Positions 567 through 32,502 of a stretch of DNA of 47,665 nt are shown piece after piece; position 1 is the first letter of the stretch; each line of letters opens with the position of its first letter. The notes beneath the pieces were generated by a model, which saw only the letters and a program-made list of their open reading frames with translations, did no database searches and was not told where the DNA came from. The stretch is from a candidate division WOR-3 bacterium. GTDB taxonomy: Bacteria > Hydrothermota > Hydrothermia > LBFQ01. The stretch spans positions 1 through 47,665 of the forward strand of contig JALWZG010000072.1 in NCBI GenBank assembly GCA_027002825.1. Direction: 5' to 3'. Position numbers and translations under genes: made by a program.

Positions 567-2713
567 TTATGAAGAAGAGGTACGATTTAAACTTCAACGG
601 CAGAACCCTCACGATAGAACCCGCCGACAGATGGTTGAAACAGGCGGCAGGTTCCGCCCTTGTGCGGATGGGCGATACGGTTGTCCTCGCGGCCGCCACC
701 TACAAAAAGGCGGATCCAAAAAACAAGCGGGATTTTCTACCCCTTCTGGTTGAGTACAGGGAGGAATCCTTTGCGGCCGGAAAGATACCCGGAGGGTTTT
801 TCAGACGTGAGGGAAAACCGCGCGAGAAGGAGATCGTCTACGGCAGGGCCATTGACCGTTCCCTCAGGCCGCTCTTTCCCAAAGGCATGACCGACGACGT
901 GGAGTTGGCCGTAATGCTTATATCTTACGATATGGAATACGAGGGCAACTTTCTTGGAGCGATAGCCTCGTCTCTTGCCCTAACCCTCTCGGAGATACCC
1001 TTCAACGGACCGATAGGTACGGTCAGGCTGACCAGAATCAACGGGGAATTCGTAATCTTCCCCACAAACGAAGAGGTTGAAAAAGGGGATTTTGACCTGT
1101 TGGTTTCGGGAACTCCCGGTGGAAAGTTCCACATGATAGAGCTCGGTGGGAAGGAGGTGCCGGAAGACATCCTGATAGAGGCCCTGAAGTTCGCCCGTGA
1201 ACCCATAGAGATCATAGCCAACGTACAGGAGGAGCTGAGGGAATCCCTGGGTAAAGAGAAGTTTGAACCGACGCTCCTGCGCTATCCCGAAGGGTTAAAG
1301 GAGGAGGTTGAGGGGATTGTCAAGGACAAAATCCTTGATGCCATGCTCTCAGGGACAAAAGGTGAGAGAAACGAAGCCCTTGACAGACTCAGAGAGGAGG
1401 TAATAGAGGCACTCTCCGAGAAGTATCCGGACAGCGAAGTTGAGATAGGAGACATACTTTACAACCTTGAAAGGGAGACCCTCCGGAAATACGTGCTTGA
1501 GAACAACAAACGCATAGACGGAAGGGCGCTTGACGAAATACGACCGCTCTTTGCCGAAATCGGAATGCTGCCAAGGGTTCACGGATCGGCCGTGTTCGGT
1601 AGAGGTGAAACAATAGCGCTTGTGTCCACCACCCTCGGCACCCACGAGGACATGCAGATGATGACAGAACTGGACGTTGAAGAGTTCAAAAGGTTCATCC
1701 TCCATTACAACTTTCCACCCTTCTCCGTGGGCGAAGTAAGACCCATGAGGGGACCTGGACGCAGGGAAATAGGCCACGGAAACCTGGCGGAAAAGGCCCT
1801 TGAACCGCTCATCCCCGACGAGGAAACCTTTCCCTACACCATAAGGGTGGTCTCGGACATACTCTCCTCCAACGGCTCCACGTCCATGGCCAGCGTATGC
1901 GGTGGATCCCTCTCCCTGATGGACGCCGGTGTACCGATAAGGGAACACGTTGCCGGTATCTCCATAGGTTTGATAACGACGGAAGACAAAAAGGACTACC
2001 GTTTACTTACGGATATACAGGGCATGGAGGACTTCTTCGGCGACATGGACTTCAAGGTTGCCGGGACATCCAAAGGGATAACGGCCATACAGCTGGACCT
2101 GAAAATTGACGGGTTGACCCTTGATATGATCTCCGACGCCCTTCAACGGGCAAAAGCCGCCCGCGAGAAAATACTTGAGTTCATGAACAACGTTATATCA
2201 AGACCGAGGGAAAAGGTTTCTGCCCACGCACCCAAAGTTATGACCCTGAAGGTTGACCCTTCAAAGGTGGGTGAGATCATAGGTCCGGGGGGAAGGGTCA
2301 TACGCTCCATCATAGGTCAGACGGAGACCAAGATAGACATAGACGACGAGAGCGGCATGATCTTCATCTACGGTAAAACCTACGAAAACGTTGAAAGGGC
2401 CAAGGAGCTCATACAGGAGATAACGGCCGATCTGGAGATAGGCAAAACCTACATAGGTGAGGTTTACAGGATAGAGCCTTACGGCGTCTTCGTAAGGATA
2501 GGCAAAAAGGAGGCCCTACTCCACATATCCGAATTCGATTTCCGCCGAATAACACCGGAGGAGTTGAGGAGATCCGTAAAGATAGGAGACAAACTCCTTG
2601 TAAAGGTGATAGACGTGGACGAGCTGGGAAGGGTAAAGGTCTCCCGCAAACAGGCGATGCGGGGGGTTTCCAAGCTTTCAAGGGGTCCAAAAACCGGTGG
2701 AAGCGGAAGGTGA
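563..2713 (+). CDS. pnp: Polyribonucleotide nucleotidyltransferase (PNPase)
   Basis: AGKIPGGFFRREG, RREIGHG, SNGSTSMASVCG and GDMDFKVAGT motifs, KH (IIGPGGRVI) and S1 domains. Start is GTG 563 or ATG 569. Confidence 0.98.
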   Translation: MIMKKRYDLNFNGRTLTIEPADRWLKQAAGSALVRMGDTVVLAAATYKKADPKNKRDFLPLLVEYREESFAAGKIPGGFFRREGKPREKEIVYGRAIDRSLRPLFPKGMTDDVELAVMLISYDMEYEGNFLGAIASSLALTLSEIPFNGPIGTVRLTRINGEFVIFPTNEEVEKGDFDLLVSGTPGGKFHMIELGGKEVPEDILIEALKFAREPIEIIANVQEELRESLGKEKFEPTLLRYPEGLKEEVEGIVKDKILDAMLSGTKGERNEALDRLREEVIEALSEKYPDSEVEIGDILYNLERETLRKYVLENNKRIDGRALDEIRPLFAEIGMLPRVHGSAVFGRGETIALVSTTLGTHEDMQMMTELDVEEFKRFILHYNFPPFSVGEVRPMRGPGRREIGHGNLAEKALEPLIPDEETFPYTIRVVSDILSSNGSTSMASVCGGSLSLMDAGVPIREHVAGISIGLITTEDKKDYRLLTDIQGMEDFFGDMDFKVAGTSKGITAIQLDLKIDGLTLDMISDALQRAKAAREKILEFMNNVISRPREKVSAHAPKVMTLKVDPSKVGEIIGPGGRVIRSIIGQTETKIDIDDESGMIFIYGKTYENVERAKELIQEITADLEIGKTYIGEVYRIEPYGVFVRIGKKEALLHISEFDFRRITPEELRRSVKIGDKLLVKVIDVDELGRVKVSRKQAMRGVSKLSRGPKTGGSGR

Positions 2714-3108
2714 TACCGTTCATCCTGCAGTTGGACACCCTAAAAGGGGATACGGTTGACACCCTTGTCAGAAAGGACACCTTCCTCCTCTCCCCCGCAC
2801 AGGCCGCCCTGCGTTCCGCCATCATTCCCGGCTGGGGGCAGTTCTACACGGGAAACGCCGCCAAAGGTATGTGCCTCGGCCTTTTAACCTTAGCCGCCAC
2901 ATCCTACACCCTTTACAGGTATTACGTAATGCGCGAGGAGGAATCCTACTCCTACTCCGCAACCACAGACTTCCTCGCGGCGCTCATCTTGAACATCGCC
3001 GTTTGGGGTTATACCATCGCGGACGCCTTTACGGACGCATATCTCTACGGGTTTGAGACCTTTCGGGACACGCTAAAAGCGGATTTAACACCGAAAAAGG
3101 GGGATTAG
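2710..3108 (+). CDS. DUF5683-like membrane/exported protein
   Basis: SP..AALRSAIIPGWGQFY motif plus hydrophobic segments and DAFTDAYL; GTGA-coupled to pnp. Confidence 0.7.
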   Translation: MIPFILQLDTLKGDTVDTLVRKDTFLLSPAQAALRSAIIPGWGQFYTGNAAKGMCLGLLTLAATSYTLYRYYVMREEESYSYSATTDFLAALILNIAVWGYTIADAFTDAYLYGFETFRDTLKADLTPKKGD

Positions 3109-7153: not shown

Positions 7154-7232
7154 ATCCGACGAGAGCGGATATTGTAAGGGTGTAAACGGTGAATTGCTCC
7201 GGGGGACGTTTGTGCCTTAAAATACCCACCGG

Positions 7233-8387
7233 ATGCTTTTCGTCCTCACATATGTGTCCGAGGTGTGGTTGGAAAGGGGGAGGTGTGAACCCGTCAGGAT
7301 GCGCAACGCCGAGGAGTACGTCGTTCCCGCCTCAACGTTGAAGTCCCTCTGGGCCATACTCCTCCTAAACGAGTTGGGGGAGGACTACCGCATCCCAACA
7401 CTTGTGGCCACAAAGGGAAACGTCGTGATCCTCAGGTTCAACGGTGATCCTTACTTCAAACTCAGGAGGTTGGACTCGGTTTTGCTGGAGAGGTTTAAAG
7501 GGATAAGGGGTAAGACCGTATACGTCCTCCTCTCCTTTCCCCGCTGGGGGGAGAGGTACGGTTATGGTTGGGCGTGGGATGACATAAAGTTCAGACTCGT
7601 CTCACCCATAACCCCCATATCCATAAACGGCGGAAGGCTTTACGAGGACAGCACCCTGAACATAGTAGTGGTGGAGGGTCTGGAGGAGGAGATAATAACG
7701 GATACGGCCCTGCTGATACCGAGAAACGGTTGGAGGTACTCCGATCCGCTCTCCGTGATCGGGTACGTGGTGAGGCGGGCGGGGGAGAGGAGCGGTAAGA
7801 GGGTGGTCTTTGAGTACAGGGAGGAAAACCGCATAAACCTCTCAGGCTTTTCAACCGACACATTTTACAGCCCCCCACTCCGCCGTATGCTCAAGGGAAT
7901 ACTCGCCTACAGCTCCAACTTCCACATGGACATGTTGGTGGCCCATTACTCCGGCGGTCTGATAAACTCGGGTAAGGCGTTCAGGAGGTTTATGGGTAAT
8001 CTCGGAATGGACACACTCGCCTACGTGTTTGACGGTTCAGGTCTCTCGCGGTACAACCTGATAAGGGCGGTGGACGCCACCTACATGCTGTGCGCCGCGT
8101 CAAGGGGGAAGGACAGCACGGTCAGGTACATATTCCCGTATCCGGGAGAGGGAACGCTGAGGAGGAGGCTCCTGGAGATGAGAGACATGGTCTACGCCAA
8201 AACGGGAACGCTTTTCGGTGTTTCCTCCCTGCTCGGGTTTTACGAGGGGTGCAACGGGAATTACGTGTTCGGCATATACATGCAAAACTCCCCGATCGTC
8301 AGGAAATCCAGGGATTTCATAGACTCCCTTGTGGTGTGGACGAGTGGGGGTAGGGAGTGCAACCGAGCCGAGGAGGTCAGAAGATGA
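7233..8387 (+). CDS. dacB: D-Ala-D-Ala carboxypeptidase/endopeptidase (PBP4, peptidase S13)
   Basis: SxxK (PASTLK), GDP, SxN (SSN), DGSGLSRYN, KTG (AKTGTL). Confidence 0.88.
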   Translation: MLFVLTYVSEVWLERGRCEPVRMRNAEEYVVPASTLKSLWAILLLNELGEDYRIPTLVATKGNVVILRFNGDPYFKLRRLDSVLLERFKGIRGKTVYVLLSFPRWGERYGYGWAWDDIKFRLVSPITPISINGGRLYEDSTLNIVVVEGLEEEIITDTALLIPRNGWRYSDPLSVIGYVVRRAGERSGKRVVFEYREENRINLSGFSTDTFYSPPLRRMLKGILAYSSNFHMDMLVAHYSGGLINSGKAFRRFMGNLGMDTLAYVFDGSGLSRYNLIRAVDATYMLCAASRGKDSTVRYIFPYPGEGTLRRRLLEMRDMVYAKTGTLFGVSSLLGFYEGCNGNYVFGIYMQNSPIVRKSRDFIDSLVVWTSGGRECNRAEEVRR

Positions 8388-9043
8388 TAGCTCTCATCCC
8401 GTCCTTTTTGGACACACCGGAAACCCTTGTGTTTGAGGCCAAATTCGGACCCTTTAAAGCCGGAAGGCTTTACCTCATAAGCGAGGGAAAGGTGTTCTGG
8501 AACGGGAGGGAGGCTTACAGGTTCACACTGATAGCCCACGGCGGAGTTCCGTTCTTCAGGATAAGGGACACACTCATAAGCGTCGTGGATCTAAACCTAC
8601 GCTCACTCTTCTACAAAAAGCTTCAACACGAGGGGAACTACCACAACTGGGGATGGATAGCGTACGATCAGGAAAACGGTGTGGCCCAATACCACACAGG
8701 TGAAAGGGTTGGGATACCGAAGGGCAGTTTGGACCCTCTCGCCCTCGTTTACGTGGCCAGAACACTTGACTTTGACGCCAAGGAGGAGTACTCCTTCCCC
8801 TATCACGTGGACTTCATAACCGAAACGGTGCGCGTGAGGCTGGTGGGGAGGGAAAAGGTCAAGACGAAGTTCGGGTGGCACGACTGTTGGGTGGTAAAGC
8901 CGATAATGAGATCCGGGAAGAACGTCTTCGGCGGTAAGGGTGGGATGAGGATATGGATTGACAGGAAAACCCGCCTACCCGTAAAGGTTGAGGCCAGGAT
9001 GGTCTTCGGTAAGGCGACGGGTGTGTTGGTTGACCGTCAGTAA
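8384..9043 (+). CDS. DUF3108-family exported protein
   Basis: ETLVFEAKFGPFKAG, DPLALVYVAR, GREKVKTKFG..DC, IWID...LPVK. ATG 8384 overlaps the dacB stop (ATGA). Confidence 0.75.
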   Translation: MIALIPSFLDTPETLVFEAKFGPFKAGRLYLISEGKVFWNGREAYRFTLIAHGGVPFFRIRDTLISVVDLNLRSLFYKKLQHEGNYHNWGWIAYDQENGVAQYHTGERVGIPKGSLDPLALVYVARTLDFDAKEEYSFPYHVDFITETVRVRLVGREKVKTKFGWHDCWVVKPIMRSGKNVFGGKGGMRIWIDRKTRLPVKVEARMVFGKATGVLVDRQ

Positions 9044-11826
9044 TCCCAACCGAACGATACGACCCATCTGCCCCTCCCGATCTCCCTGAAGTCCGTGGGC
9101 CAGGCGTAGTCAAGTCGCACGGGGAAATAACCCAAGGTGAACCTCAACCCCACACCGAAGTCCGCGCCCAGATCCCACAACCTCCCGTCCTTTATGGGTT
9201 GGAATTTCCTCAGGGGTATGTCCTCATCAAACCAGGCGTTTCCCACGTCAAGGAAGAAGAGGGATCTCACACCCCTTATCTCAAAGGGTAAAAAGCCGAA
9301 CTTCAGTCTGTCCAGAAATGGAAACCTCAGCTCCGACGTGAAGAGGACGAGGTTGTTCCCTATAAGGGCGGTTATGAATTTTCCTTCCTCATCGTATCCG
9401 AAGTAGTACAGGTCGTACGCCCGCAAGCCGTAAGGTCCGCCCGCAGGAAAGGCCTGTTTGTGGTGGCCGACGCTTCTCGCCAAGACCAGCCTGTTGGCCC
9501 AAACACTCCTGAAGGTTACCCTCTTGAAGAACATCGCCTCAAGCAGGACTGTTTTGAAGTCCACCTGTGAGAAGGGCAGGCTCGTGGACGTTATCAGTCT
9601 CCACCTCAGGCCATCCGTCGATCCGAACACGGTCAACAGGACGTCGTCGTACACGAGGCTGCCGGTTATGTCATATCCCTTGGGATAAACGAAGGACGGG
9701 TAAACGCACAGGAGGGTACCTCCGCAGTAGGGGTAGTAGTAGTTGAGGGAATCCTGATGGAACCTTATCCACGTGTTGTAATGGGCGGAGAAATACGCCT
9801 CCCCCCTGAAATACCTGTTGAAGGGGTACTGCATACCCGCCACGCCGGACAACCTTTTCTCAAACACGAAGTAAGGCTTCAGGTACTTGAAATCCCACAG
9901 CTGGGATATACCGAACACCTTGTCTATGCGCCCCTTAAAGTTGTACCACGCGAGCACGAACTCGGAGTTTTCTATGTTTTGGGATTGCCCCAAAATCTGA
10001 AAGAATATCCAGTTATCTCCGGGGATGTCGGAGAAGAGCATGTAAAACGCCCCAACCGTCCCGTAAAAGCTGGAGTACCCCAAGCTCCCCATGGCGAAGT
10101 CTAGACCGAGAGTGAAACCAAGGGGTCGGCGGACGGCCTCCGCCGTCAGGTTGCTGTCCGGGAGTTCATAACCCTCCTCCCCTTCAAGGAAGACCAAGCC
10201 CTTGGGTGTCATGGGATAGGGTGATAGGAAGACGTCCCATCCACCCTCCCACATCATGGAGAAGACCAACCTTTCCCCCTTGGCCACATCGGGGTGGGAT
10301 ATCTCCGTAAAGTAATCGCTCAACATGTAAACGCTGTCCCCCCTCAGGAGGAAGAGGTTCACGGCGCCCATGTGATCCGTCAGGAAGGCTATGTCCTCTC
10401 CCCACCGGATGGGGGATCTCAGGATCCTCCTGCTACCCCACACCTTTTCCACCTCTCCCGTCCTCAGGTCCATCTTGAAGATGGAGTAAGCCCCGATCCG
10501 ACCCCTCTCGTTTCTGTCGCTCACGAAGAGGAGGGTGTTGTCATCGTACCAGTAGGGATCATCCTCGCTCCACCCGTCGTCCGTTATGCGCACGAACGTG
10601 TCCCTCTCCATATCGTAAACGTATAGGTCAGTTATACCGTCCTTGTACCCCACAAACACCACCCTCCTGCCGTCAGGTGATACCCTTGCCCCATGGGCTC
10701 CGTCCAGAAACCCCAGCTCCACCTTCTTCACCCTCCTGAACCTCCTCAGGTCCCATACGTGGAGTATGTCGGAGTACGTCCCCTGGGACACGAGTATCAA
10801 CCTGTTGTCGGCCGTTATGTCAAGGGAGGGTTTCAGGACGTGCAGGTTCTCAAAATCGGGGGATCTGCCCGCCGTCAGGACCTTTCTGATCCTCCTCGTT
10901 CCGAGATCCACCACGTAAACCCCTATCCTTCCCCCCTTGTCCGATATGAAGGCTATCTTTGAGCCGTCCGGCGATATGGCGGTACCGAGGTTGAGGAAGG
11001 ATTTGTCCCTCCTCCTGCTCGTGATCTTCTTCACGTCATCGGGAAAGTTGAACGTTCCCATGGCCTTCAGGACCCGCTCCTTTATGTACATCGCGAACTC
11101 CTCATCTATTTCCGGGAGGTTCTTGTGGGTTATCCTCTCAAGGGCAACCCGGACGTTCCCGGATATGCCAAACCTTATGAAGTCCCTTACGGCTTCCTCA
11201 CCGTATACGTCCTTTACGTAGTTGAAAAAGGCCTCGCCGTATCTGTAGACGATGTACCCCCCGTAGTAATCCATCTCCTCCAAGGGGATCAGGTTTAGGT
11301 TCACCACCAGGTCCCTCATGTAGGCCTCTGTGCGCACACTCCAGCCCTGTGAGAGGAACTCCGCCATGCCTTCAACGAACCAAAGGGGTGGGGATGAGTA
11401 GAGGAGGGAGGAAAAACCGCGGGAGTAGGAGTACTGAAAGGCGTGGACGAGTTCATGCCTCAGTACATGTCTGAACTCCGCGTAAGAACCCGCGAAAGGC
11501 ACAACGATACGCCTCTTGAAACCCTCGGTGAACCCCCCCACACCTTCGGGCACAAGGTAGGGGGAGACGTTCGTCATCTGAAAGTCCTTGGGTGAGACGT
11601 ATATGAGAACCGGTATCTTCTCCCCCTCCCCCAGGGCGCCGGGGAAGTACTTCTCAAACTCCCTGTAAGCCTCCTCCAGAACACCCAAGGCGAAGAGGGC
11701 GAGCCTTTCACCACCCTGATAGTAGTAAACCTTGAAATGCCTCCCGTCCAGATAACCCCACCTCAGCTCCTTGTGGTCAACCTTGTTGTAGCCATAAGAC
11801 CACTGGGATACGAGGAGGAGAAGCAT
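9037..11826 (-). CDS. Omp85/BamA-family outer-membrane protein with N-terminal gluzincin-like peptidase and PD40/TolB-like propeller
   Basis: HELVH...WFVEGMAE; SPDGSKIAF and SPDGRRVVF repeats; GLRAY, ELRFP, FFLDVGNAW, GVGLRF, RLDYAWP; terminal GWDY. Confidence 0.85.
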   Translation of the reverse strand: MLLLLVSQWSYGYNKVDHKELRWGYLDGRHFKVYYYQGGERLALFALGVLEEAYREFEKYFPGALGEGEKIPVLIYVSPKDFQMTNVSPYLVPEGVGGFTEGFKRRIVVPFAGSYAEFRHVLRHELVHAFQYSYSRGFSSLLYSSPPLWFVEGMAEFLSQGWSVRTEAYMRDLVVNLNLIPLEEMDYYGGYIVYRYGEAFFNYVKDVYGEEAVRDFIRFGISGNVRVALERITHKNLPEIDEEFAMYIKERVLKAMGTFNFPDDVKKITSRRRDKSFLNLGTAISPDGSKIAFISDKGGRIGVYVVDLGTRRIRKVLTAGRSPDFENLHVLKPSLDITADNRLILVSQGTYSDILHVWDLRRFRRVKKVELGFLDGAHGARVSPDGRRVVFVGYKDGITDLYVYDMERDTFVRITDDGWSEDDPYWYDDNTLLFVSDRNERGRIGAYSIFKMDLRTGEVEKVWGSRRILRSPIRWGEDIAFLTDHMGAVNLFLLRGDSVYMLSDYFTEISHPDVAKGERLVFSMMWEGGWDVFLSPYPMTPKGLVFLEGEEGYELPDSNLTAEAVRRPLGFTLGLDFAMGSLGYSSFYGTVGAFYMLFSDIPGDNWIFFQILGQSQNIENSEFVLAWYNFKGRIDKVFGISQLWDFKYLKPYFVFEKRLSGVAGMQYPFNRYFRGEAYFSAHYNTWIRFHQDSLNYYYPYCGGTLLCVYPSFVYPKGYDITGSLVYDDVLLTVFGSTDGLRWRLITSTSLPFSQVDFKTVLLEAMFFKRVTFRSVWANRLVLARSVGHHKQAFPAGGPYGLRAYDLYYFGYDEEGKFITALIGNNLVLFTSELRFPFLDRLKFGFLPFEIRGVRSLFFLDVGNAWFDEDIPLRKFQPIKDGRLWDLGADFGVGLRFTLGYFPVRLDYAWPTDFREIGRGRWVVSFGWDY

Positions 11827-18580: not shown

Positions 18581-19332
18581 TTTGTCATGGTCGTATCTTT
18601 TGGATCCCTCTCTATGCGCTTCACCACACCCGTGTAGGGTGTCCACCAGTAATGGGAGCTGAGGTAAACGCTCCCCGCGCCGCCCACAAGCTCAAGGACT
18701 ATGGTGTAAACGACCTCCTGAGAGCATACCGGTTGGGAGTTGACCTCCAGTGTGGTCGTATCCTTTACGACGGCTATGAGCCTGTACCTTATGGTGTCGG
18801 CCGCCGTATCCCCTATGTAGTCCGCCGGTGGTAGTGTGTCCCAATCCGTACTCACGCTATCACCGCTCTTCAGGGGATACCAGGCGAAGGGGGCCTCTAT
18901 CCTCAGCAGGACGGTATCCGTGATCAGCTTTATGGTCCTGTTTATCCTCATGTAAAGGGTGTCGTTCTGTAGGAAGACGTAAACCGTGTCCTCCTGACCG
19001 TCGTAAGGACCACCGGAGTAGTAGGTCACCCACGTGCTGTCGTCAACCATCCTGACGTCCTCGGACCACGTGTTCCCCGTGGGAGAGGTTATGCTGTCCT
19101 TGGACGTGTCCCGACCCGTCCCCTCTATCACGTTGTAGGTCCAGAGGGCGTTTACGACAAGGGGAAAATACCCCGCACGTCCCGTATCCGGACACGATAT
19201 GACGGAGACCGTGCTGTCCGAATCCGTAGCGGATGTGCAGAGGGGGGATTCGGGGTAATCGCTACAGAAATCCTTGTCGCACCCCAAAAGGGCGCTTACG
19301 GCCAAAAAACCCAAAAGAAGACGTTTTAACAT
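18541..19332 (-). CDS. Lipoprotein of unknown function
   Basis: MLKRLLLGFLAVSALLG-C lipobox; YFPL..N..WTY and WWTPYTGVVKR; Thr/Asp-rich. Confidence 0.8.
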   Translation of the reverse strand: MLKRLLLGFLAVSALLGCDKDFCSDYPESPLCTSATDSDSTVSVISCPDTGRAGYFPLVVNALWTYNVIEGTGRDTSKDSITSPTGNTWSEDVRMVDDSTWVTYYSGGPYDGQEDTVYVFLQNDTLYMRINRTIKLITDTVLLRIEAPFAWYPLKSGDSVSTDWDTLPPADYIGDTAADTIRYRLIAVVKDTTTLEVNSQPVCSQEVVYTIVLELVGGAGSVYLSSHYWWTPYTGVVKRIERDPKDTTMTKWLQKDLLNFTLP

Positions 19333-19342
19333 CCAACGTTTA

Positions 19343-20734
19343 TTATAAGGGGGATTCCTCTCCCCTTTTGTACCTCTCGACCAGGTCCTTCAGGACCTCA
19401 AGTGCTTCCTCCCGTGTTCTCACCTTACCCTCCGCCCTCAACTCCTCTATCTCGTTCAAGATCCTCTTGTAAACCGGACCGGGTGGTAGTCCCATGGCCT
19501 TGATATCGTGGCCGGTCACCAACCTCGGAGGTCTGTTGGCCTCCGCCTCAAGGTCCCTCAGCAACCTCTCCAACTTCCTCGCCAGTCTCAGCTGACCCGC
19601 AACCCCTTCCGCCCTCAGGGGTGTGGCAAGGGCGTCGGCGTAGGCCAGCAGTATGATGGGAAAGGCCCATTCCCCCGTCCTCCTGTGAAACCTGAAAAGC
19701 GCCCTCCTGGTCACGTCCGGTGTGGCGAGGAGATGGGGGTGCATATGCTCCGCTATGATCAGGGCGACGGTGTCCGTGAGGTCCTTGCTCATCCTGAGCC
19801 TGCGACCTATTCTCCTGAAGATCTTTGAACCTATGTAATCATGGCCGTGGAAGGAGATCTCGCCGTTTTCGTCCATTCTGTACGTGGCCGGCTTTCCGAC
19901 ATCGTGGAACATGGTTCCGAGGACGAGGGCAAACCTCCCCTCCGCCCTCTTCAGGACGTCCAACCTGTGAAGGTAATACGTGAAAGGTCCGTCCTCCAGG
20001 GTGTTCAGGGCGACGTTCAACCTCCTCAAGGCCAAAAGGGTGTGCGACCAAACGTCCGTTTCAAGGCCTTTAAGGGGCCTCCTCAGATCCTCAAGCTCCG
20101 GAAATATGTAAAAGAGGAGGTGCGTCTCCGCCATGGCGGAAACGGCCCCGTAGAAGTTCTCCGAGGAGAGTATGAGCCGCAGCTCGTAGACTATACGCTC
20201 AGGGGATACCCCATCTATCAGGCTGCTGTTCTCCCTTACGGCGAAGAGGGTGCGATGCTCCACCTTGAAGTTGAGGGTTGAGGCGAACCTGAAGACCCTG
20301 AGCATCCTGAGGGGGTCCTCTTTCAAATTCCTCTCGGATGTCATCCGGACAACCCCACCTTTTATGTCCTCAACACCGCAGAAGGGGTCTATGATCCTCC
20401 AGTCGGACAGGGAGACGGCTATGGAGTTGATGGTCAGGTCCCTCTTCATGAGGTCGTCGTATATGCTCCCGTCTATGCGTGTAAAGTCTATCTGCTCTCC
20501 GTCTATTACGACCCTGTATATCCCGAACTCCTCACCAAGGGGTACAAACACCCCCCCCATGTGTCGGGCCATAAGGCGGGCGACTTCCTCGGGTTGCCAG
20601 ACGGCGAAGTCCCAATCCTTTGGGACCTTTCCCATGAGGAGATCCCTTACACTTCCACCCACCAAAAACGCGTCGGCCGGAACCCACTGAAACCACGGTT
20701 TTGAGGAGAGGAGACCCTTTATCACCTCAACCAT
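19343..20734 (-). CDS. Class II tRNA nucleotidyltransferase with HD domain (probably CC-adding type)
   Basis: VGGSVRD..G...DWDF, DDLMKRDLTINS, EDPLRMLRVFRF, ERI..EL, HTL...FHDVGKP. Confidence 0.9.
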   Translation of the reverse strand: MVEVIKGLLSSKPWFQWVPADAFLVGGSVRDLLMGKVPKDWDFAVWQPEEVARLMARHMGGVFVPLGEEFGIYRVVIDGEQIDFTRIDGSIYDDLMKRDLTINSIAVSLSDWRIIDPFCGVEDIKGGVVRMTSERNLKEDPLRMLRVFRFASTLNFKVEHRTLFAVRENSSLIDGVSPERIVYELRLILSSENFYGAVSAMAETHLLFYIFPELEDLRRPLKGLETDVWSHTLLALRRLNVALNTLEDGPFTYYLHRLDVLKRAEGRFALVLGTMFHDVGKPATYRMDENGEISFHGHDYIGSKIFRRIGRRLRMSKDLTDTVALIIAEHMHPHLLATPDVTRRALFRFHRRTGEWAFPIILLAYADALATPLRAEGVAGQLRLARKLERLLRDLEAEANRPPRLVTGHDIKAMGLPPGPVYKRILNEIEELRAEGKVRTREEALEVLKDLVERYKRGEESPL

Positions 20735-21960
20735 ATGAACCTTTCGCTGTAAAAGATGCCGTTTATCCTGACACGGACGAAGTACACCCCTCTGTGGGCG
20801 ACCTTTCCGTCCGAGGTCCTACCATCCCAGAAAACCTTAAAGGCCCCCCTACGGAAACCCGAATACACCGTCCTCACAACCTTGCCCGTGAAGTTGAGGA
20901 TCTCCACTTCAACCCTTGAAGGCCGGTCCAGCTTGACGTATATCTCAACCCCGTCCCCCCTGTAGGAGACGGATATGGGTTTTTCGCTCAGTATGTACCC
21001 GGCGAGGTCGTACCCGTCCGTCCCGGATATCTGGAGCGTGAACTCCCTTCCGCCGTAGATCACCGTGTAGCTTCCCTCCTTCACGGGGAACACACCTTCA
21101 ACCGTGGAATTCATAAGGTTTAACGCGGTGACGTACACCGAGGACGAACCCGATTTCAGGATGTAGGGGGAGGAGAACTTTATAAACGGTCGGTTTATGG
21201 GGAAAAGGTTCAGGTTTCTGCGGCCGTAGACGGCGAAAAGCGAGTTGTTGAAGGCGGCAAGTCCCACCGCCCTGCTCTCCCCGTGGGCTACGCCGTTTAT
21301 GTAAAGCACCTCGTTGGCGATCTTGAGCTCCACGTCGGCCACGACCGTCCTCGGATAATACGAGGATTTGAAATCAACGTGCGGTTTCCCACCCCCGAAG
21401 CTTATAGCGCCGTACTCCGTATAAACCCTTTCATCCCCGCATACGACGAAGGATGAACCGAAAGATAAGGTGTCCACGGCTTCGGGTGATATGATGAGGG
21501 TTGAAACGTCGGATACGGCCAGAAGCCTCTCCTCTCCCCCTACACCGCATACGGTCAGGTCGCGCGCGCCCTCCAAGACGAGGGAGAGATTCCCATCCCT
21601 CAGGACAAACATGCCCTCGCGGGAGAGGAGGTAGATCCCACCGTTAAAGGCGTAGGCTTTGGAGTAGTCTCCGGTTATCTCCTTCTGTTCAACCTCCCAC
21701 GTATGAACGTTGAAAACGACCACGGGGGAAACCAGGTCCTCAAGCGTCAGCAGAAGGTGGCCTTCGGAATGGGTTGATATGTGAAGGACGGGCGCTTTGA
21801 CCGACTTAACCTCTTCCGGTCGGGACCCCTTACCCATGCGATAAAGTCCTTTGGAGGTTCCGAGGAATATCTCGCTTTCCCCGTCCCCGTTCGCGTCCAC
21901 GGAGGCTATGGCGTTTATTTCACCTATCTCCCAACTTGAGAGGATGAAAAACGCGAGCAT
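20722..21960 (-). CDS. Exported protein with C-terminal FlgD-Ig/T9SS-type domain
   Basis: DANGDG loop near the N-terminus; C-terminal ILNFTGKVVRT...WDGR..DG....GVYFVRV. Confidence 0.75.
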   Translation of the reverse strand: MLAFFILSSWEIGEINAIASVDANGDGESEIFLGTSKGLYRMGKGSRPEEVKSVKAPVLHISTHSEGHLLLTLEDLVSPVVVFNVHTWEVEQKEITGDYSKAYAFNGGIYLLSREGMFVLRDGNLSLVLEGARDLTVCGVGGEERLLAVSDVSTLIISPEAVDTLSFGSSFVVCGDERVYTEYGAISFGGGKPHVDFKSSYYPRTVVADVELKIANEVLYINGVAHGESRAVGLAAFNNSLFAVYGRRNLNLFPINRPFIKFSSPYILKSGSSSVYVTALNLMNSTVEGVFPVKEGSYTVIYGGREFTLQISGTDGYDLAGYILSEKPISVSYRGDGVEIYVKLDRPSRVEVEILNFTGKVVRTVYSGFRRGAFKVFWDGRTSDGKVAHRGVYFVRVRINGIFYSERFIWLR

Positions 21961-21961: not shown

Positions 21962-23719
21962 TCACTTCAGCTGTTGGACGAACTGCTCCATCTGGCTCGC
22001 CTCTTTGCCCTTACCCGCCGCCCTGTACAGCTTGGCGGCGTTCTGGAAGGCGGTTATGGCGTTGGCCTTGGCGGTCTCGTCCCCGGCCTCGTACTTCTTG
22101 TAGTAGGAGAAGCCGAGGAACTTGTAGGCGTCGGCGAGCTTGTCGGATCTGGTATAGGTCTGGACGAACCGTGTGAGGTAGGTGATGGCGTTGTCGTAGT
22201 CCTTCTTGGCGAAGTGGGCCAGGGCGAGGAGGTAGAGGGCGTTCTCGGCGTCCTCACCGTTGGGGTACTTCTGGACGTACTCCGAGAAGTGCTGTATGGC
22301 CTTGTCGTACTCCTTCATCTGGTAGGCGATGTAGCCGGCGTTGAAGGTGGCCTTGGGGGTGTACTGGCTGTTGGGGAAGAGCCTGACGAACTCCTCAAAG
22401 AGCTTAAGGGCCTTGGGGTAGGCCCCCTGTTTGTAGGCGGCGAGGGCCTTGTTGAAGACGGCCTCCGCCCCCACCTCGGATTTCACGTACTGGGCCACCT
22501 CCGGCTTTTCCGCTATGAGGGCCTGGAGGAGTTTCTTCACCTTCTCGGCGTCCTTGTGGCCGGGGTACTCCCGTAGGAACTGGTCCCAAACTTCGGCCGC
22601 CCTCCTGTAGTCCTTCAGCCTGTAATACACCTTACCGAGGAGTTCAAGGACGGCCGGCCTGTCCTCACCCTCAGGGTACCTCTTCAGGTAGTACTCCAGC
22701 TTTTCCTTTGCCTTCTCGTAGCTGCCGGCCTGATAGAGGAGCTGGCCGAGGTAGGCGACCAACTTGGCGGATCTGGGGTCGTCGGGGAAGAACTGGATGA
22801 ACCTCTCAAACCTCTGCTGGGCCTTGGTCATCTGGCCGCTCTCGTAGGCCTTCATACCGGGTTTGTAGAAGAGGATCTCACCCACGAGGGGGTTGCTGAC
22901 CTTCACGTTGGGCGCGAGGGCTATGTTGTCTCCGTACTTCTTCTCAACATATGCGAGGGAGGCGAGAATGGTGTCCTTCAAAAAGGGATAGCCCGCCAGG
23001 GCCTTCTCGTACTGCTGGATAGCCTTGGGATAATCCCCGTACTCGGCGTACCACTCGGCGAGTATGATCTCAAACCTCGGTTTCCGTGGGTGTCCCCTCT
23101 CTATGAGCTTTTTCAGCTCCGTTATGGCCTTGAAGAGCTCTCCCTTCTTCCTGTAGGCGAAAACCTTTAGCACGGCAGCCTCGTTCGCCTTTTTGGTGTT
23201 GGGAAACTTCTTCTGCAGGAGATCCACGTAGCGCACAACCTTATCGTAGGAGCCGTTCATGTAGGCGGAGAGGGCGGCAAAGTAAAGGGCGTCCCTGTAC
23301 ACGTCCTCGTATTCCGGGTAGCGGGTTAAGGCGCTGAAGTACCTCTGGGCCTTCAGGTACTTGCCCTTGTTGTAGTACGCGATCCCCAAACCCATGTATA
23401 CGGGTATTATGAAGGGTTTTCTGCCACCGCTCAGTATCTCGGCCTTTTTCAAGGTGTCTATGGCCTCGCTGTACCTTCCGAGATGGATCAGGGTCCATCC
23501 GTTCCCGATGAAGCCGGCCAACCGCTTCCCCATCGCCTCCGTGTTGTTTATGAGGTCCTCGTACATTCCCTTCGCCCTCTCGTAGTTTCCGGAGTAGTAC
23601 AGCCTTTCGGCCTGTGCGACGAGCGATCCGTACTTGCTGGCAAAGAGATCGGGCAGGGGCTTTTTGTATCCTGTTATCTTGGTAGGTATGAGCGACGACA
23701 CCAAAAAGATGCTCAACAT
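21962..23719 (-). CDS. Periplasmic TPR-repeat protein (BamD/CpoB-like repeats)
   Basis: Many TPRs of the type A...F..F...YP.S....A.Y..G. Start moved to ATG 23719, which avoids the mtaB overlap and has TAGAAT 10 nt upstream. Confidence 0.85.
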   Translation of the reverse strand: MLSIFLVSSLIPTKITGYKKPLPDLFASKYGSLVAQAERLYYSGNYERAKGMYEDLINNTEAMGKRLAGFIGNGWTLIHLGRYSEAIDTLKKAEILSGGRKPFIIPVYMGLGIAYYNKGKYLKAQRYFSALTRYPEYEDVYRDALYFAALSAYMNGSYDKVVRYVDLLQKKFPNTKKANEAAVLKVFAYRKKGELFKAITELKKLIERGHPRKPRFEIILAEWYAEYGDYPKAIQQYEKALAGYPFLKDTILASLAYVEKKYGDNIALAPNVKVSNPLVGEILFYKPGMKAYESGQMTKAQQRFERFIQFFPDDPRSAKLVAYLGQLLYQAGSYEKAKEKLEYYLKRYPEGEDRPAVLELLGKVYYRLKDYRRAAEVWDQFLREYPGHKDAEKVKKLLQALIAEKPEVAQYVKSEVGAEAVFNKALAAYKQGAYPKALKLFEEFVRLFPNSQYTPKATFNAGYIAYQMKEYDKAIQHFSEYVQKYPNGEDAENALYLLALAHFAKKDYDNAITYLTRFVQTYTRSDKLADAYKFLGFSYYKKYEAGDETAKANAITAFQNAAKLYRAAGKGKEASQMEQFVQQLK

Positions 23720-24991: not shown

Positions 24992-26698
24992 TTACCTCAC
25001 CAGAACCCTTACAAACCTGCCTCCGACCCTCACGAAGTATATCCCTTTCCCCATACGGGCAACCCTCCTCCCGGACGGATCGTAGATCTCCTCCCATCCC
25101 ACTTTGATGTCTCTGGCCTCATAGACCCGGAGCCCATCCCCCTCTCCGAGGGGAAGGGGCAGGGGATAGTTGTGGGAGAATTCAGACGTGTTTCCGGAGT
25201 TATCCCTGCTCAGGGCCGTCAGGTAAAGGCCGCCGCTGGACCAGTCGGGGCCTGTGCTGTCAACCTTGACGTTGAGGGTGAAGGTCTGGGCCAACACGGG
25301 CACGGCGGATATGAAGGCTCCACCCTCCCCGTGGCCGTGAGTTTCACCGAGGCAGTTCTGGTTATCGCGGGTTGAGACCACGTATATCTCAACGGAATCC
25401 GCTCCCGTGTACGCCCTTCCCCACACGAGCAGGAAGGTATCTCCCGCGGATACGAGCACATCGGCCGAGTCTATGTAGGGGTAGTCTATCAGGCCGTTGG
25501 GATAACCCGTTGTGAAGGCGTTGTCGTTGCACGTCACCCCATCGCCGGCCGATCCCGACGCCCCTGAGGGGTCAAGATCTATGGCGAGGCCTCCGTTGTT
25601 GGAGAAGTAATTGCGCGATACGAGGACCATTTTGGAATTCCCTCCCTTCCTTCCGACACCCACACCCGGGCCGGGCAGGTGCCATCCGTTATCGTAAATC
25701 CTGTTGTGCGTTATATAAACGCCGGCGGAGCCTCCGTCAACGAAGATCCCTTTCGTTCCGTTGTTGTAGATGGTGTTCTCGGTTATGGTTATGTTCTCGG
25801 CGTTGTACCTGACCTCTACACCTGCACCGAAAACCCTTTTATCGGTTGCCGTGGGATGATCCGAGGAGTGTATCAGGTTGTGTCTGAGGGTGACGTTGTT
25901 GAAGTAGACGTTTAGATTGTCCCCCTTGTTGAAGTTCCAAGCGCTGGCGAAGACCTCCGAGGAGTCAAGGACCCAACCAGAGGAGGAATTCGCTGATGTG
26001 CTTCCGAACTTCACACCGTGGGCGCCGCAGAATCCGACGTAGAGTCTCGTGAGCTTTCCGGAGGTGTTTTGATCCACAAAGACGCAGTCGGAACGGGTTG
26101 AGTCCACGGGCTCGCTCCCGTCCGCAGGAATACCCACGAAGAGGTTTTCCAGACGCACGTTATGGTTTCCGGGTCTGACCCTTATAACCTGACTTCCCGA
26201 ACTCCCACCTCCGTTGAAGAAGGCCATACCCCTGATCTGGACGTCGGAGGAGTTTATCTCAAGGAGGCCGAAGGTGTTGGATTTCCCGTTGAGGTCTATC
26301 TCTATCTCCGGACAGGGGAAGTATCCGAGGGTGGCCCCAAGGGTTCCCACGCTTCTGCTCTCGGAGTTCATGACGCCCGTCCAACCGGCGGAGTCGGGGG
26401 CGGCCCTGTAAGAGGGATGGCAGAGGTTGGTGTTGCCCCGGTTGAGGGTCTGACTCCACCCGTCTATTAAGAGGGGGTCGGTGATGGTCGGGAGCTTTGA
26501 GGAGAGGGTTATCCTCCACCAGCAGTTCCCCGAGGAGCATACGTGTCCGGGATCGGATGGGGGTATGTTGAAGACCACGGTGTCCTTACCGGGATGGGAG
26601 TTGGCCTGATTTATGGCCCATCGGAGGGTGCCCACGGCACCGTTGTCCGCCGTCTTATCCACAACATAGGTATGGGACAGGATAAAAATCGCCATCAT
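24992..26698 (-). CDS. Exported right-handed beta-helix protein with T9SS-like C-terminal sorting domain
   Basis: GTLRWAI.QAN..PG.DT..FNIP N-cap, Asn/Gly ladder repeats, GLAIDL, GNTSEFS, C-terminal IYDPSGRRV...KGIYFVR. Confidence 0.82.
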   Translation of the reverse strand: MMAIFILSHTYVVDKTADNGAVGTLRWAINQANSHPGKDTVVFNIPPSDPGHVCSSGNCWWRITLSSKLPTITDPLLIDGWSQTLNRGNTNLCHPSYRAAPDSAGWTGVMNSESRSVGTLGATLGYFPCPEIEIDLNGKSNTFGLLEINSSDVQIRGMAFFNGGGSSGSQVIRVRPGNHNVRLENLFVGIPADGSEPVDSTRSDCVFVDQNTSGKLTRLYVGFCGAHGVKFGSTSANSSSGWVLDSSEVFASAWNFNKGDNLNVYFNNVTLRHNLIHSSDHPTATDKRVFGAGVEVRYNAENITITENTIYNNGTKGIFVDGGSAGVYITHNRIYDNGWHLPGPGVGVGRKGGNSKMVLVSRNYFSNNGGLAIDLDPSGASGSAGDGVTCNDNAFTTGYPNGLIDYPYIDSADVLVSAGDTFLLVWGRAYTGADSVEIYVVSTRDNQNCLGETHGHGEGGAFISAVPVLAQTFTLNVKVDSTGPDWSSGGLYLTALSRDNSGNTSEFSHNYPLPLPLGEGDGLRVYEARDIKVGWEEIYDPSGRRVARMGKGIYFVRVGGRFVRVLVR

Positions 26699-26747
26699 CT
26701 CTACCGGTGGTATTCTAAGGGGGATTCTCCCGTAGGATAAAAGGGTT

Positions 26748-29464: not shown

Positions 29465-29499
29465 TATTCTAAACCCGACATTCAAATCCGGGGTAGAAT
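29465..29499. promoter_or_regulatory. Back-to-back promoters: TAGAAT (-, 29466-29471) and TAGAAT (+, 29494-29499)
   Basis: 6 nt before the STAS ATG and 7 nt before ATG 29507 of the PmbA-like gene. Confidence 0.65.
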
Positions 29500-29506
29500 G
29501 CCTTCT

Positions 29507-30865
29507 ATGTTAAAACAGCTCCTCTACGATCTCGCCGAAGGGGTTTTGAGGATCTCCAACGCCGAACAGACGGTGGTGTTGGTCAAAGGTGAGAGGTCAA
29601 GGCTTGTAAGGTTTGCCAATTCACGTGTGCATCAGAACACAGAGGTCAGAAACGTCTCCATCAGCGTTCACGTCCGGTTTGGAAACAGGGCCGCCACGGC
29701 CGAGAGCAACGCCATAAACTCCCCGGAGGACATAGCAAGCCTTGTGAGGAAGGCCGAAGAGATGGCCAAAATCTCACCGGAAAATCCGGAGCTCTTGGAG
29801 GTGCCCAAATCCGGAAAACTGGAAACCTCACCCGACACGTTTGACGAACTGACGGCCGAGGCGGATCCGTCCCACCTCATAGATATGGCCACCCGCCTGA
29901 TAAAGGGAACCCCCAAGCCCTTTGAGGCTTTCGGGACGATCTCCGGCGGAGCGGACGAGATGGTAGTCCTGACCTCGGAGGGGTTTGAGGGGTACAGGGG
30001 TGTGACGGCGGCGCACGTCAAGTACAACCCCATACACGACCTTACACACGGTTATCTCGTCCAGAAATCCGGTCACACGTTCAGGGACTTTGACGTTGAG
30101 CTTATACTCCAGCGCGCTCAGGACAGGCTTTCCTTCGTTTTAAACCCGGCCGAACCCCAACCGGGCAAATGGACGGTCATCCTTGAACCCCTTGCCGTCG
30201 CCGAGCTTTTGGGTTTCCTCAACTGGATGGGCCTCTCGGCCAGGTCGGTTCTGGACGGAATATCACCCCTTGGCGAAAAGCTGGGAAAGGGGATCTTTTC
30301 GGAAAGGTTTACACTTTACGACGATCCCCTCAACCCCAGGGGGTACCCCTTCCCGTTTGACGCGGAGGGGAGGAAGAAGGGGCTTACAACCGTGGTTGAA
30401 AGGGGTGTCCTTAAAAACCTCGCCCATGACAGCATCACGGCCAAGAGGCTGGGTACAAAGTCCAACGCCTGCGCCACTACGCTTCAGGCGAGCAGGCCCA
30501 TGTTCCTCAACCTCAGGCTGAAGGAAGGTGATGAGGGGTACGGGGAGATCTTGAACGGGAGTGAGAGGGCGTTACTCGTGACGAGGTTCTGGTACACCAA
30601 CATCGTAAACCCAAGGGACCTGAGCATCACGGGTATGACGAGGGATGGACTGTTTTTGGTTGAGGACGGTAGGATAGTGGGGAGTGTCAAGAACATGCGT
30701 TTCAACGTAAGCCTGTTTGACGTCTTCTCCAACGTCGTTTCCGTCTCCAAGGAAAGCGAACCTGTTGGGGATTCCACCTGGTACGGCCCTTTCATCGCCA
30801 TAGGTGCGATCGTTCCCACGCTCAAAGTGGAAGGGTTCAACTTTTCATCGTCAACCCTGTTCTGA
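29507..30865 (+). CDS. TldD/PmbA family protein (PmbA/TldE-like, no HExxH)
   Basis: RFANS.VHQN, PG.WTVILEP.AV, DDP, FDAEG, TG.TRDG.FLVEDG. Start moved to ATG 29507 because ATG 29498 lies inside the -10 box. Confidence 0.9.
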   Translation: MLKQLLYDLAEGVLRISNAEQTVVLVKGERSRLVRFANSRVHQNTEVRNVSISVHVRFGNRAATAESNAINSPEDIASLVRKAEEMAKISPENPELLEVPKSGKLETSPDTFDELTAEADPSHLIDMATRLIKGTPKPFEAFGTISGGADEMVVLTSEGFEGYRGVTAAHVKYNPIHDLTHGYLVQKSGHTFRDFDVELILQRAQDRLSFVLNPAEPQPGKWTVILEPLAVAELLGFLNWMGLSARSVLDGISPLGEKLGKGIFSERFTLYDDPLNPRGYPFPFDAEGRKKGLTTVVERGVLKNLAHDSITAKRLGTKSNACATTLQASRPMFLNLRLKEGDEGYGEILNGSERALLVTRFWYTNIVNPRDLSITGMTRDGLFLVEDGRIVGSVKNMRFNVSLFDVFSNVVSVSKESEPVGDSTWYGPFIAIGAIVPTLKVEGFNFSSSTLF

Positions 30866-32502
30866 TGTGGTTCTTCCCCTTTTTGGACAGTCTCTTGGCC
30901 TACGGGGGACTCTCAAGGGTTGACCTCACCTTTGAAAAGGATCTGTCAACCCGAACGCTCTTCAAACCCCAACCCGTTCTCCGCTACCTATCCGATCCCC
31001 TCTCCCTGATGGTTTGGGCATCGGACGGTGGAAAGTACGTCACCGTTAAACCCGAAAGCCTACCCGCGACCTTTTGGCCCGTCAGGTACAGAAAGGTCAG
31101 AATGCGCACCCGCTTTACCGTAAGGGACAGCACGATCAAGAGGATCGTTGAGACCCTCTACTGTGTGGATTACTTTGAGGGTAGGGCTTTTCTGAGGGTT
31201 GGCAGGAGGAGGGATACGTTGAGGGAGAGGTTGAAGCGAGCCTGGGACCCGAGCGCACCGGACGGTGATTCGTTGACGTTTGCGGAGGTGCGTCTCGCCG
31301 TGGACTCCGTCGATTACAACCTCCTCCTCAACGCCTTCGGCTGCCTCTTAAACCTGGACACCTCACTCGTCCCCCGAATGGAGGGGGATTTTCAGTACGA
31401 GTACATAACGGGCTTTGGAAAGGTAGCCGTCGGGGGAACTGGAAGCAACACCTACAGGGGAAGGTACGCGGCCATTTACGACTTCGGAGGGGATGACTCC
31501 TACTTCCTCGAGAGCTCCCCCACGCTGATAGTGGACCTCGGGGGGAACGATAGGTATTGGGGGGAGTTCGCGTCGGGCATCGTGGGTGTTTCCGCCCTTT
31601 ACGACCTCGCCGGGAACGATGTGTACGAGTGTGATGGCGTTTGCGCCGGTGTGGGTCTCATGGGGTTCGGTCTACTTTACGATAGGAGTGGGGACGATTA
31701 CTACTCCGCCGGCTACCACTCCCTCGGCGCCGGCACCTTTGGAGGGGGCTATCTTATGGACAGGGAGGGGAACGATGTGTACAAAGGTGTAATATACGGC
31801 CAGGGGTTTGCCGGGACATACGGAGTGGGTATTCTTTCGGACTCTTCCGGGAACGACGTGTACGCCCTCGGATACGGCCCAATACACGCCCCCCTGTTCA
31901 AAACCCAGCACCAGTCCTTGGGGCAGGGCTTTTCCATAGGCTGGAGGGACAGGTTCGGAGGAGGTGTGGGGGTCCTGGCGGACGGTTCCGGAAACGACCA
32001 TTACCTCGCAGGCACGTACGCCCAAGGCGTCTCCTATTGGTACGCCCTGGGTTTGCTTTACGATGGGGGCGGAGATGACAGGTACATATGCGCTGAGTAC
32101 TGTCAGGGGGCCGGGATACACGTTTCCGTGGGGGCGTTGGTGGATAAATCGGGTGATGACCTCTACTACGCCATGTTCGGTCCGAGCATAGGTGAGGGAC
32201 ACGACTTCTCGGTCGGCTTCTTTTACGATTCAACGGGGAACGATACGTACTACACCAGCGGTGGTTTCGGGGTCGGGCTTACCAACTCCGTCGGAATATT
32301 CGTGGACGGCGGAGGGAAGGACAACTACTCGGCTCGTGAGAAGGAGATCTCCTTCGGAGGGGCGAACGAGAAGCGGGAGATGGGAGGTATAGGTGTGTTT
32401 CTGGACCTCGGAGGTGAAAGGGACACCTACCCCATGCTCTTCCACACGAAAAACGGACACCTATGGGTCAGACCCAAATGGGGACTCGGATGGGACAGGT
32501 AG
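30865..32502 (+). CDS. Exported Gly/Asp-rich repeat protein (about 12 DxxGxDxY repeats)
   Basis: YDFGGDDSY, VDLGGNDRY, YDLAGNDVY, YDRSGDDYY and further copies; TGATG-coupled to the upstream gene. Confidence 0.8.
   Translation: MWFFPFLDSLLAYGGLSRVDLTFEKDLSTRTLFKPQPVLRYLSDPLSLMVWASDGGKYVTVKPESLPATFWPVRYRKVRMRTRFTVRDSTIKRIVETLYCVDYFEGRAFLRVGRRRDTLRERLKRAWDPSAPDGDSLTFAEVRLAVDSVDYNLLLNAFGCLLNLDTSLVPRMEGDFQYEYITGFGKVAVGGTGSNTYRGRYAAIYDFGGDDSYFLESSPTLIVDLGGNDRYWGEFASGIVGVSALYDLAGNDVYECDGVCAGVGLMGFGLLYDRSGDDYYSAGYHSLGAGTFGGGYLMDREGNDVYKGVIYGQGFAGTYGVGILSDSSGNDVYALGYGPIHAPLFKTQHQSLGQGFSIGWRDRFGGGVGVLADGSGNDHYLAGTYAQGVSYWYALGLLYDGGGDDRYICAEYCQGAGIHVSVGALVDKSGDDLYYAMFGPSIGEGHDFSVGFFYDSTGNDTYYTSGGFGVGLTNSVGIFVDGGGKDNYSAREKEISFGGANEKREMGGIGVFLDLGGERDTYPMLFHTKNGHLWVRPKWGLGWDR

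Follow-up and report, generated by a model that had tools for sequence, protein, structure and literature searches.

Most non-lipoprotein proteins expected to act outside the cytoplasm of a candidate division WOR-3 bacterium begin, in the stretch of DNA analysed here and across the genome it comes from, with a short, charge-free N-terminal signal: the initiator Met and about 5-10 strongly hydrophobic residues, with no basic residue, often ending in Ser, Ala or Gly and followed by a polar residue. The stretch (the window) is 47,665 nucleotides long and is contig C72 of an assembly that we call G000. We consider it probable that the families f1 and f2, which form one order and include this bacterium, export most of their non-lipoprotein envelope proteins by such a contracted, minimal Sec signal, probably cleaved by the signal peptidase LepB. 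The short signals, called stubs below, are genome-wide and lineage-specific and stand at the position of the classical signals of 18-30 residues found in orthologues, which supports the proposal of a preliminary description of the window that the lineage uses an undescribed minimal export signal.

The G000 assembly, a metagenome-assembled genome, comprises 1,720,098 bases in 113 contigs (GC 55%). Four DNA runs from three studies contain the window or part of it, and three of the four are labelled hydrothermal vent metagenome; no RNA run with the window was listed. We compared 31 genomes of the class (G000 and G001-G030), which fall into nine families, f1-f9, with G000 in f1. Orthologues of five of the eight stub proteins of the window (Omp85, DacB, DUF3108, TPR and DUF5683) were retrieved from 20-30 related genomes. 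The eight proteins, and a lipoprotein that serves as a control, are as follows.

9037..11826, minus strand: Omp85/PD40 outer-membrane protein (Pfam Omp85, PD40); stub MLLLLVS at 11806-11826, then QWSYGYNKV.
24992..26698, minus strand: right-handed beta-helix protein (Pfam Beta_helix); stub MMAIFILS at 26675-26698.
20722..21960, minus strand: cargo of the type IX secretion system (T9SS) type with a FlgD-Ig C-terminal domain (PF13860 at 20770-20949); stub MLAFFILSS at 21934-21960.
21962..23719, minus strand: TPR / YfiO(BamD)-like protein (Pfam TPR, YfiO); stub MLSIFLVSS at 23693-23719.
2710..3108, plus strand: DUF5683 protein (Pfam DUF5683); stub MIPFIL, GTG start, at 2710-2727, then QLDTL.
8384..9043, plus strand: DUF3108 protein (Pfam DUF3108); stub MIALIPSFL at 8384-8410, then DTPETL.
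7233..8387, plus strand: PBP4/DacB-like S13 peptidase (Pfam Peptidase_S13); stub MLFVLT at 7233-7250, then YVSEVWL.
30865..32502, plus strand: protein without known family; stub MWFFPFL at 30865-30885, at the first start codon of the frame.
18541..19332, minus strand: control lipoprotein; classical signal MLKRLLLGFLAVSALLGC, encoded at 19279-19332.

All nine N-termini translate as first described; a correction concerns the start codon at 2710, which is GTG. The in-frame stops that had been pointed out upstream of two genes are also there, a TAA at 11851-11853, eight codons 5' of the Omp85 ATG, and a TGA at 21967-21969, two codons 5' of the FlgD-Ig ATG. Four starts (2710, 8384, 11826 and 30865) overlap the stop of the preceding gene; for instance, the DUF3108 ATG overlaps the dacB stop. 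The family scan of the eight matched no Pfam family to the protein at 30865, so its export is without independent support.

For the genome-wide counts we defined a strict stub as an N-terminus with no D, E, K, R, Q, N or H before residue 7 and the first such residue by position 15, a mean hydropathy of at least 2.3 over residues 2-7 and no transmembrane-like continuation (mean hydropathy below 1.5 over residues 2-19). A looser classifier, which gave 156 stubs, had produced 6% false positives at internal Met and was tightened for that reason; under the strict rule, 1.8% of internal Met pseudo-N-termini score as stubs. The final census combined the strict definition with our own gene caller and a most-upstream-start rule. 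An earlier rule, which took the first start with a Shine-Dalgarno match, skipped many real stub starts and scored 9 of the 31 exported markers described below; the figures of 80 strict stubs, 28 lipobox proteins and about 11 signals like those of signal peptidase I (SPI) substrates were obtained with it and are under-counts.

Stubs are concentrated on exported proteins. T9SS-type C-terminal domains (PF13860, PF18962) mark 23 open reading frames in G000, one of which is cut by a contig end; read by eye, 20 of the 22 complete ones begin with a stub and two with a classical signal. Likewise, BamA, two other Omp85 proteins, two TolC-like proteins, OmpH and two PD40 proteins have stubs in all eight cases of these non-lipoprotein markers, and a third PD40 protein is a classical lipoprotein. 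Under the strict rule, stubs occur on 18 of 31 independently defined exported markers versus 97 of 1571 other genes (odds ratio 21, Fisher p = 7e-14). The remaining 13 markers comprise two with classical signals and 11 that fail the rule; nine of these 11 begin with a short uncharged hydrophobic run by eye, and two show the run at a later ATG.

These tabulations, which the preliminary description had called for, bear on several of its statements. The stub forms the N-terminus of members of exported families (T9SS cargo, BamA with further Omp85 proteins, TolC-like proteins, OmpH, PBP4-like proteins), and ordinary Sec/SPI signals are the minority in G000. The statement that nearly all exported proteins have such signals holds for non-lipoproteins and fails for lipoproteins: the lipobox proteins of G000 (28 by the Shine-Dalgarno start rule, 42 by the first-start rule), like the control in the window, all have a basic N-terminal region (n-region) and a long hydrophobic region (h-region), and about 11 classical SPI-like signals are also present. 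Stubs show no such arrangement of basic n-region, long h-region and lipobox Cys. That signals stay long on lipoproteins is presumably due to Lgt and LspA, whose substrate is a signal that spans the membrane.

The short starts are conserved among relatives. In all 12 f1 loci, Omp85 begins with Met or Val, 5-6 hydrophobic residues and SQWS, with a stop 0-22 codons upstream; in one orthologue (L005) the stop codon directly precedes the ATG. The DacB stub is kept in 10 of 10 f1 loci, with stops 2-17 codons upstream. DUF3108 and TPR are less simple in G000, where, as a correction to the first description, the frames are open to an upstream GTG (8357 and 23797, respectively). In-frame stops in relatives cut these extensions: a stop lies 1-4 codons ahead of the DUF3108 Met in 8 of 10 f1 relatives, and Met and stub of the TPR protein are kept in 12 f1 loci, with stops 2-4 codons upstream in three (L244-L246) and 9 codons upstream in L243. 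What relatives conserve is therefore the short start, and the GTG at 8357 was discarded. For the beta-helix gene, no ATG, GTG or TTG occurs within the 71 open codons upstream of its start. Among the T9SS stubs, 16 of 20 have a stop 0-9 codons upstream, and in 13 of 20 at most five codons lie between stop and Met.

The distribution of the stubs follows lineage. In the first-start census, stubs made up 115/1602 in G000 (f1), with 69 classical signals; 29/368 in G007 (f1), with 11; and 18/207 in G013 (f2), with 9. Elsewhere we counted 0/116 in G019 and G025 (f3), with 9 classical signals; 5/363 in G020 and G026 (f4), with 21; and 4/94 in G027 (f5), with 5. The other census samples (two smaller ones from f2, and f7, f8 and f9) were small. 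Single orthologue series give the same limits. For Omp85 outside f1, the start is 10 residues long and charge-free in two f2 loci and contains a single Arg in one f3 locus; classical signals with Lys/Arg occupy the same position in three f5 and f9 loci, and two f8 starts are ambiguous. DacB has 7-8 hydrophobic residues followed by Asn in four f2 loci and long lipoprotein-like signals in f7, f8 and f9. The DUF5683 relatives begin with MLLFPLL, MFLLPLV, MLLTLILLQ or MLIILLN, and the f4 form, MKFFLVFLILSLNA, contains one K. The TPR and DUF5683 series agree with those of Omp85, DacB and DUF3108 on the lineage limits. To judge from these N-termini, the short-signal trait marks families f1 and f2.

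We also examined the 120 best database homologues of the Omp85/PD40 protein, counting the residues before the conserved Gly of the motif G.NK[VI]; their source labels include candidate division WOR-3, Candidatus Hydrothermales and Candidatus Hydrothermia. All nine f1 homologues have 11 residues before this Gly and no K/R before the motif. The 26 homologues at 34-43% identity have a median of 16 residues, and 11 of the 26 have no K/R. In other lineages, where the motif was found in 82 of 85 proteins, the median is 26 residues, and only 8 of 82 are free of K/R. Homologues elsewhere thus carry ordinary signals at the same position.

Two candidate explanations or rules were rejected. Thermophily does not account for the stubs: by a proteome proxy, all nine families fall at 57-87 C whether their signals are short or classical, so temperature alone is no explanation. 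An acidic n-region is not a general rule, as it occurs in only 3 of 37 short hydrophobic N-termini in G012. Some short signals of related lineages do have Glu at position 2-3, the opposite of the usual basic n-region, for instance MLELIIIS, MELFILT and MVEFIVASLVS (P0021, P0025, P0026, P0028; L252, L253; G012, G016).

The character of the stub is conserved and its sequence is not. In the set of 80 strict stubs, Met and the uncharged residues after it make up a run of 6-13 residues, mostly 7-11, at or below the lower bound of the usual h-region of about 7-15 residues. By the definition of the class there is no K/R before residue 7, and by definition and our reading of the lists there is no Arg, hence no twin-arginine motif. 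At the junction, Gln is the first polar residue in 18/80 stubs versus 7/110 internal controls in G000 (p = 0.002) and in 9/27 versus 0/20 in G007 (p = 0.006); proteome-wide, Gln makes up only 1.6% of residues. Ser at position -1 is weakly enriched in G000 (15/80 versus 9/110, p = 0.045). Ser-Gln is invariant in the 12 f1 Omp85 loci, and classical signals of G000 also end in AQ. The initial impression that stubs have no C-terminal region (c-region) holds only in part, given the mild enrichment of Ser at -1 and the clear one of Gln at +1.

The likeness of these junctions to the Bacteroidetes Q-rule, to which the preliminary description had compared two of them, is partial. That rule is reported to cover most SPI substrates in Bacteroidetes and not the whole Fibrobacteres-Chlorobi-Bacteroidetes (FCB) group (PMC5837995). 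Here, Gln directly follows the stub in 22-33% of cases versus 0-6% of controls, but this is a minority of stubs, and no glutaminyl cyclase was recognised (PF05096 had 0 matches in the 86%-complete G000). The sole M28 peptidase of G000 (C98:6483-8171, equivalent to L206:754-2442) has 562 residues, with PA and PDZ regions by our own reading of its sequence, and itself begins with a stub, MFWIAVI, followed by H.

The junction is also where we weighed a different fate for the stub, namely that it is a Sec targeting signal that is never cleaved; being too short to anchor, it would stay attached to a protein that is released into the periplasm, and LepB would serve the few classical SPI precursors. 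The missing overall enrichment of small residues at -1, the many f2 stubs that end in Leu, Phe or Ile before Asn, and the stub length of 5-9 residues are what such a signal would look like, and the roughly 11 classical SPI-like signals would still need LepB. The enrichment of Gln in two genomes, the invariant Ser-Gln of the f1 Omp85 proteins and [V/S/F]-x-[A/S]-like junctions in TPR orthologues speak for cleavage, and an exposed hydrophobic N-terminus would presumably be costly on soluble periplasmic or secreted proteins. We regard an uncleaved stub as rather unlikely.

The preliminary description suggested that SecA, SecY, Ffh and LepB be inspected and that SecA, SecY or LepB might be adapted. 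The export machinery is present: SecY was found in 31/31, SecA in 27/31, LepB in 29/31 and LspA in 30/31 genomes, and tblastn with E. coli queries found SecD, SecF, YidC, YidD, YajC and trigger factor in G000. An altered LepB was rejected as an explanation, as its Ser and Lys catalytic boxes are alike in 13 aligned sequences from stub and classical lineages. The 17 clade-specific columns of SecA do not exceed what sister clades would be expected to show.

SecY differs at one site of interest. We aligned 17 f1 and f2 sequences (in G000, C81:35551-36570, or L194:1408-2745) and 12 others to E. coli SecY (chain 5abb_A). Of the 454 columns of the alignment, just 5 distinguish the two sets. In the C4 loop, the stretch corresponding to E. 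coli R255-R256-V257-Y258 reads Leu-Gly/Ser-Pro-gap in f1 and Arg/Lys-Gly/Ala-Val-Val in f2, and Arg-Lys/Arg-Val/Ile-Tyr in most of the 12 others; the exceptions are two f6 sequences with Thr or Asn at the first position and one sequence with Met at the third. The C4-loop residues are thus replaced in f1 and f2 only. Elsewhere, this loop with its R255/R256 contacts the ribosome and FtsY. The plug Phe67 and five of the six pore-ring positions (I82, I86, I191, I278 and I408) are kept; the sixth, I187, is Ala/Ser in f1, f2 and f3, and likewise in Aquifex SecY. Of the suggested changes, one is thus visible in the SecY C4 loop and none in the catalytic boxes of LepB; the former may or may not bear on the short signals.

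The signal recognition particle (SRP) was unfound throughout the class. The M domain of Ffh (PF02978) matched 0 of the 31 class genomes and all 14 control genomes. The SRP54 GTPase domain (PF00448) matched nothing in G000 and gave only partial matches, at most 28.5 bits, in 19 of 31 genomes. Seven of them are nominally over the Pfam cut-off; the three types of matching open reading frame that we scanned were MeaB (301 bits), an AAA_22 ATPase and a KaiC/AAA_25-type ATPase (RadA-like by our own reading). TIGR00959 and TIGR00064 reached at most 21.7 bits versus cut-offs of 473 and 261 (in G000, for ffh only, and in five genomes 90-100% complete). With tblastn against all of G000, E. coli Ffh and FtsY gave E = 1.1 and 0.063. 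Controls matched at 1e-15 to 1e-116 (TrmD, RplS, RpsP, SmpB, RluD, NadK, SecD, SecF, YidC, ClpP, Tgt and, at 1e-15, trigger factor), or only at 1e-10 to 1e-12 (RecN, DnaA, MnmE, YajC and YidD). GrpE (E = 0.24) and FtsX (E = 0.12) were also unmatched in the 86%-complete G000, a weak result. SRP RNA (RF00169) was found in 0 of 31 genomes, but this negative is weak because the control missed Bacteroides. A literature search, whose scope stopped short of the supplementary gene tables of WOR-3 studies, returned no report of signals like these, and none of free-living bacteria that have naturally lost SRP. A WOR-3 isolate, strain sy37, has been described (PMC12285271).

These findings invite a reading in which the stub uses another route or another mode of recognition than the SecA hairpin: head-first insertion, ribosome or mRNA targeting to SecYEG/YidC, or a lineage-specific factor, made necessary by the loss of SRP. 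Ffh and FtsY unfound in 31/31 genomes, the C4-loop replacements confined to f1 and f2, the stubs with Glu at position 2-3 and the many apparently leaderless genes (below) would all fit. We nevertheless judge it improbable, since SecA, SecY and SecDF are conserved, the plug Phe and the pore ring are unchanged but for one position, classical signals remain functional on the lipoproteins of these cells, stubs with acidic residues are rare, and no candidate factor was identified.

That the true starts lie upstream, through non-canonical starts, recoded stops or assembly errors, so that normal signals are present after all, is extremely improbable: the upstream GTGs of two G000 frames and the frames open for tens of codons would allow it, but stops of all three types lie just upstream (68 TAA, 45 TAG and 43 TGA for the 156 loosely defined stubs), so stop recoding is no explanation, most T9SS stubs stand within a few codons of a stop, the L005 stop abuts the ATG, the same short starts recur in more than 12 independent assemblies, and -10 boxes sit 6-10 nt upstream of starts.

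The last point rests on a TTAnAAT box, often CCCTTAnAAT, which peaks 6-10 nt 5' of G000 start codons (109 of 322 matches in 90-nt upstream windows). It lies 4-16 nt upstream of 135 G000 genes, 12 of them strict stubs. Three boxes of this type occur in the window.

7217-7223, plus strand: -10-like box TTAAAAT, 9 nt before the dacB ATG.
26712-26718, minus strand: -10-like box TTAGAAT, upstream of the beta-helix gene.
19342-19348, minus strand: -10-like box of the TTAnAAT type.

The peak suggests that leaderless or near-leaderless mRNAs are widespread in G000. At least five G000 paralogues (C1:22143, 22857, 23571, 26869; C14:4633) begin almost identically, with MRDGRDLLKRDPVLRRIVEVIV or variants of it. 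All of these are preceded by very similar promoter boxes of the CCCTTAGAAT type and by a Shine-Dalgarno-like stretch of the GGAG type.

We therefore return to the contracted Sec signal, which we favour, and to how it might work. The conserved SecA/SecYEG-SecDF machinery would accept the stub as a minimal Sec signal, and the unchanged LepB would probably clip it. Such a short signal could have evolved because the class is without SRP: very hydrophobic N-termini would need no sorting between SRP and SecA. Several points weigh against this reading. Both export and cleavage by way of the stub are inferred. An h-region of 5-9 residues is too short to span the bilayer as a helix, and E. coli signals without a basic n-region need a longer hydrophobic core, whereas stubs are minimal in both respects. 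Any small residue at -1 is as frequent in G000 stubs as in controls (31/80 versus 45/110, p = 0.88), and, as noted, no glutaminyl cyclase was recognised in G000. The strict rule misses 11 of the 31 markers, which makes the count depend in part on visual reading, and G000 is an estimated 86% complete. What sets the clades apart in SecY and SecA may reflect nothing more than phylogeny. Finally, Ffh and FtsY are also unfound in f3-f9, which keep classical signals, so SRP loss is not sufficient for short signals; it may be their precondition but is not their cause.

A bolder account is possible, and we put it forward tentatively. The whole class would be without SRP (with the RNA test weak), and in one order charge-free signals of 7-12 residues on nearly all non-lipoprotein exports would be read in a new way, for example by SecA or SecY at the ribosome exit or by head-first entry, with the remodelled SecY C4 loop as part of the adaptation.

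The stubs resemble several known systems in part. Like a classical Sec/SPI signal, they are N-terminal, hydrophobic and poorly conserved in sequence, they occupy the same alignment position, and SecA, SecY and LepB are present; unlike it, they are without a basic n-region, have an h-region of about 5-9 residues and a total length of about 7-12 versus 18-30 residues, and keep no more than one or two residues of a c-region (Ser at -1, Gln at +1). In E. coli, prlA (SecY) suppressors export proteins with defective or minimal signals, so that a changed SecY is a known way to tolerate them, and engineered poly-Leu cores are a related case. The likeness is export with signals missing normal n- or h-region features. 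The situation here is natural and proteome-wide, and the positions that we take to be prlA sites (F67, S282, F286, L407 and I408) are all unchanged, only I187 being Ala/Ser. Prepilin (class III) signals share a very short N-terminal leader; those leaders carry charge, and the roughly 20 hydrophobic residues behind them stay part of the mature protein, whereas the stub itself is the only hydrophobic stretch. E. coli is reported to bypass SRP by slowed translation or mRNA targeting (PMC7844537, PMC8299109, PMC10066597). Both cases indicate that membrane and secretory proteomes are manageable without SRP; there, however, laboratory suppressors are involved, and here Ffh and FtsY are unfound in 31 natural genomes.

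In the window, the gene at 11826-12455 (minus strand), whose stop overlaps the Omp85 start, resembles, together with its neighbours (also 14733-16876, minus strand), a V/A-type ATPase operon; they look like one by our own reading of the N-terminal sequences. The 99-residue protein at 14733-15032, scored as classical by the rule, is probably a membrane proteolipid and not exported.

Textbooks require of a Sec signal both a basic n-region and a hydrophobic core of sufficient length for the lateral gate. A natural lineage without the basic n-region and with a halved core on dozens of essential envelope proteins, BamA included, would offer a handle on the minimal requirements for recognition by SecA/SecY and for cleavage by SPI. 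Predictors trained on classical signals will probably miss most stub proteins, so that secretomes, the localisation of carbohydrate-active enzymes and T9SS cargo lists of this group may be badly underestimated. SRP has been called conserved in all living organisms (PMC7844537), and if Ffh and FtsY are absent from all 31 class genomes, this would be one of the rare exceptions in nature to a supposedly universal system. It would also raise the question of how inner-membrane proteins are targeted in this class.

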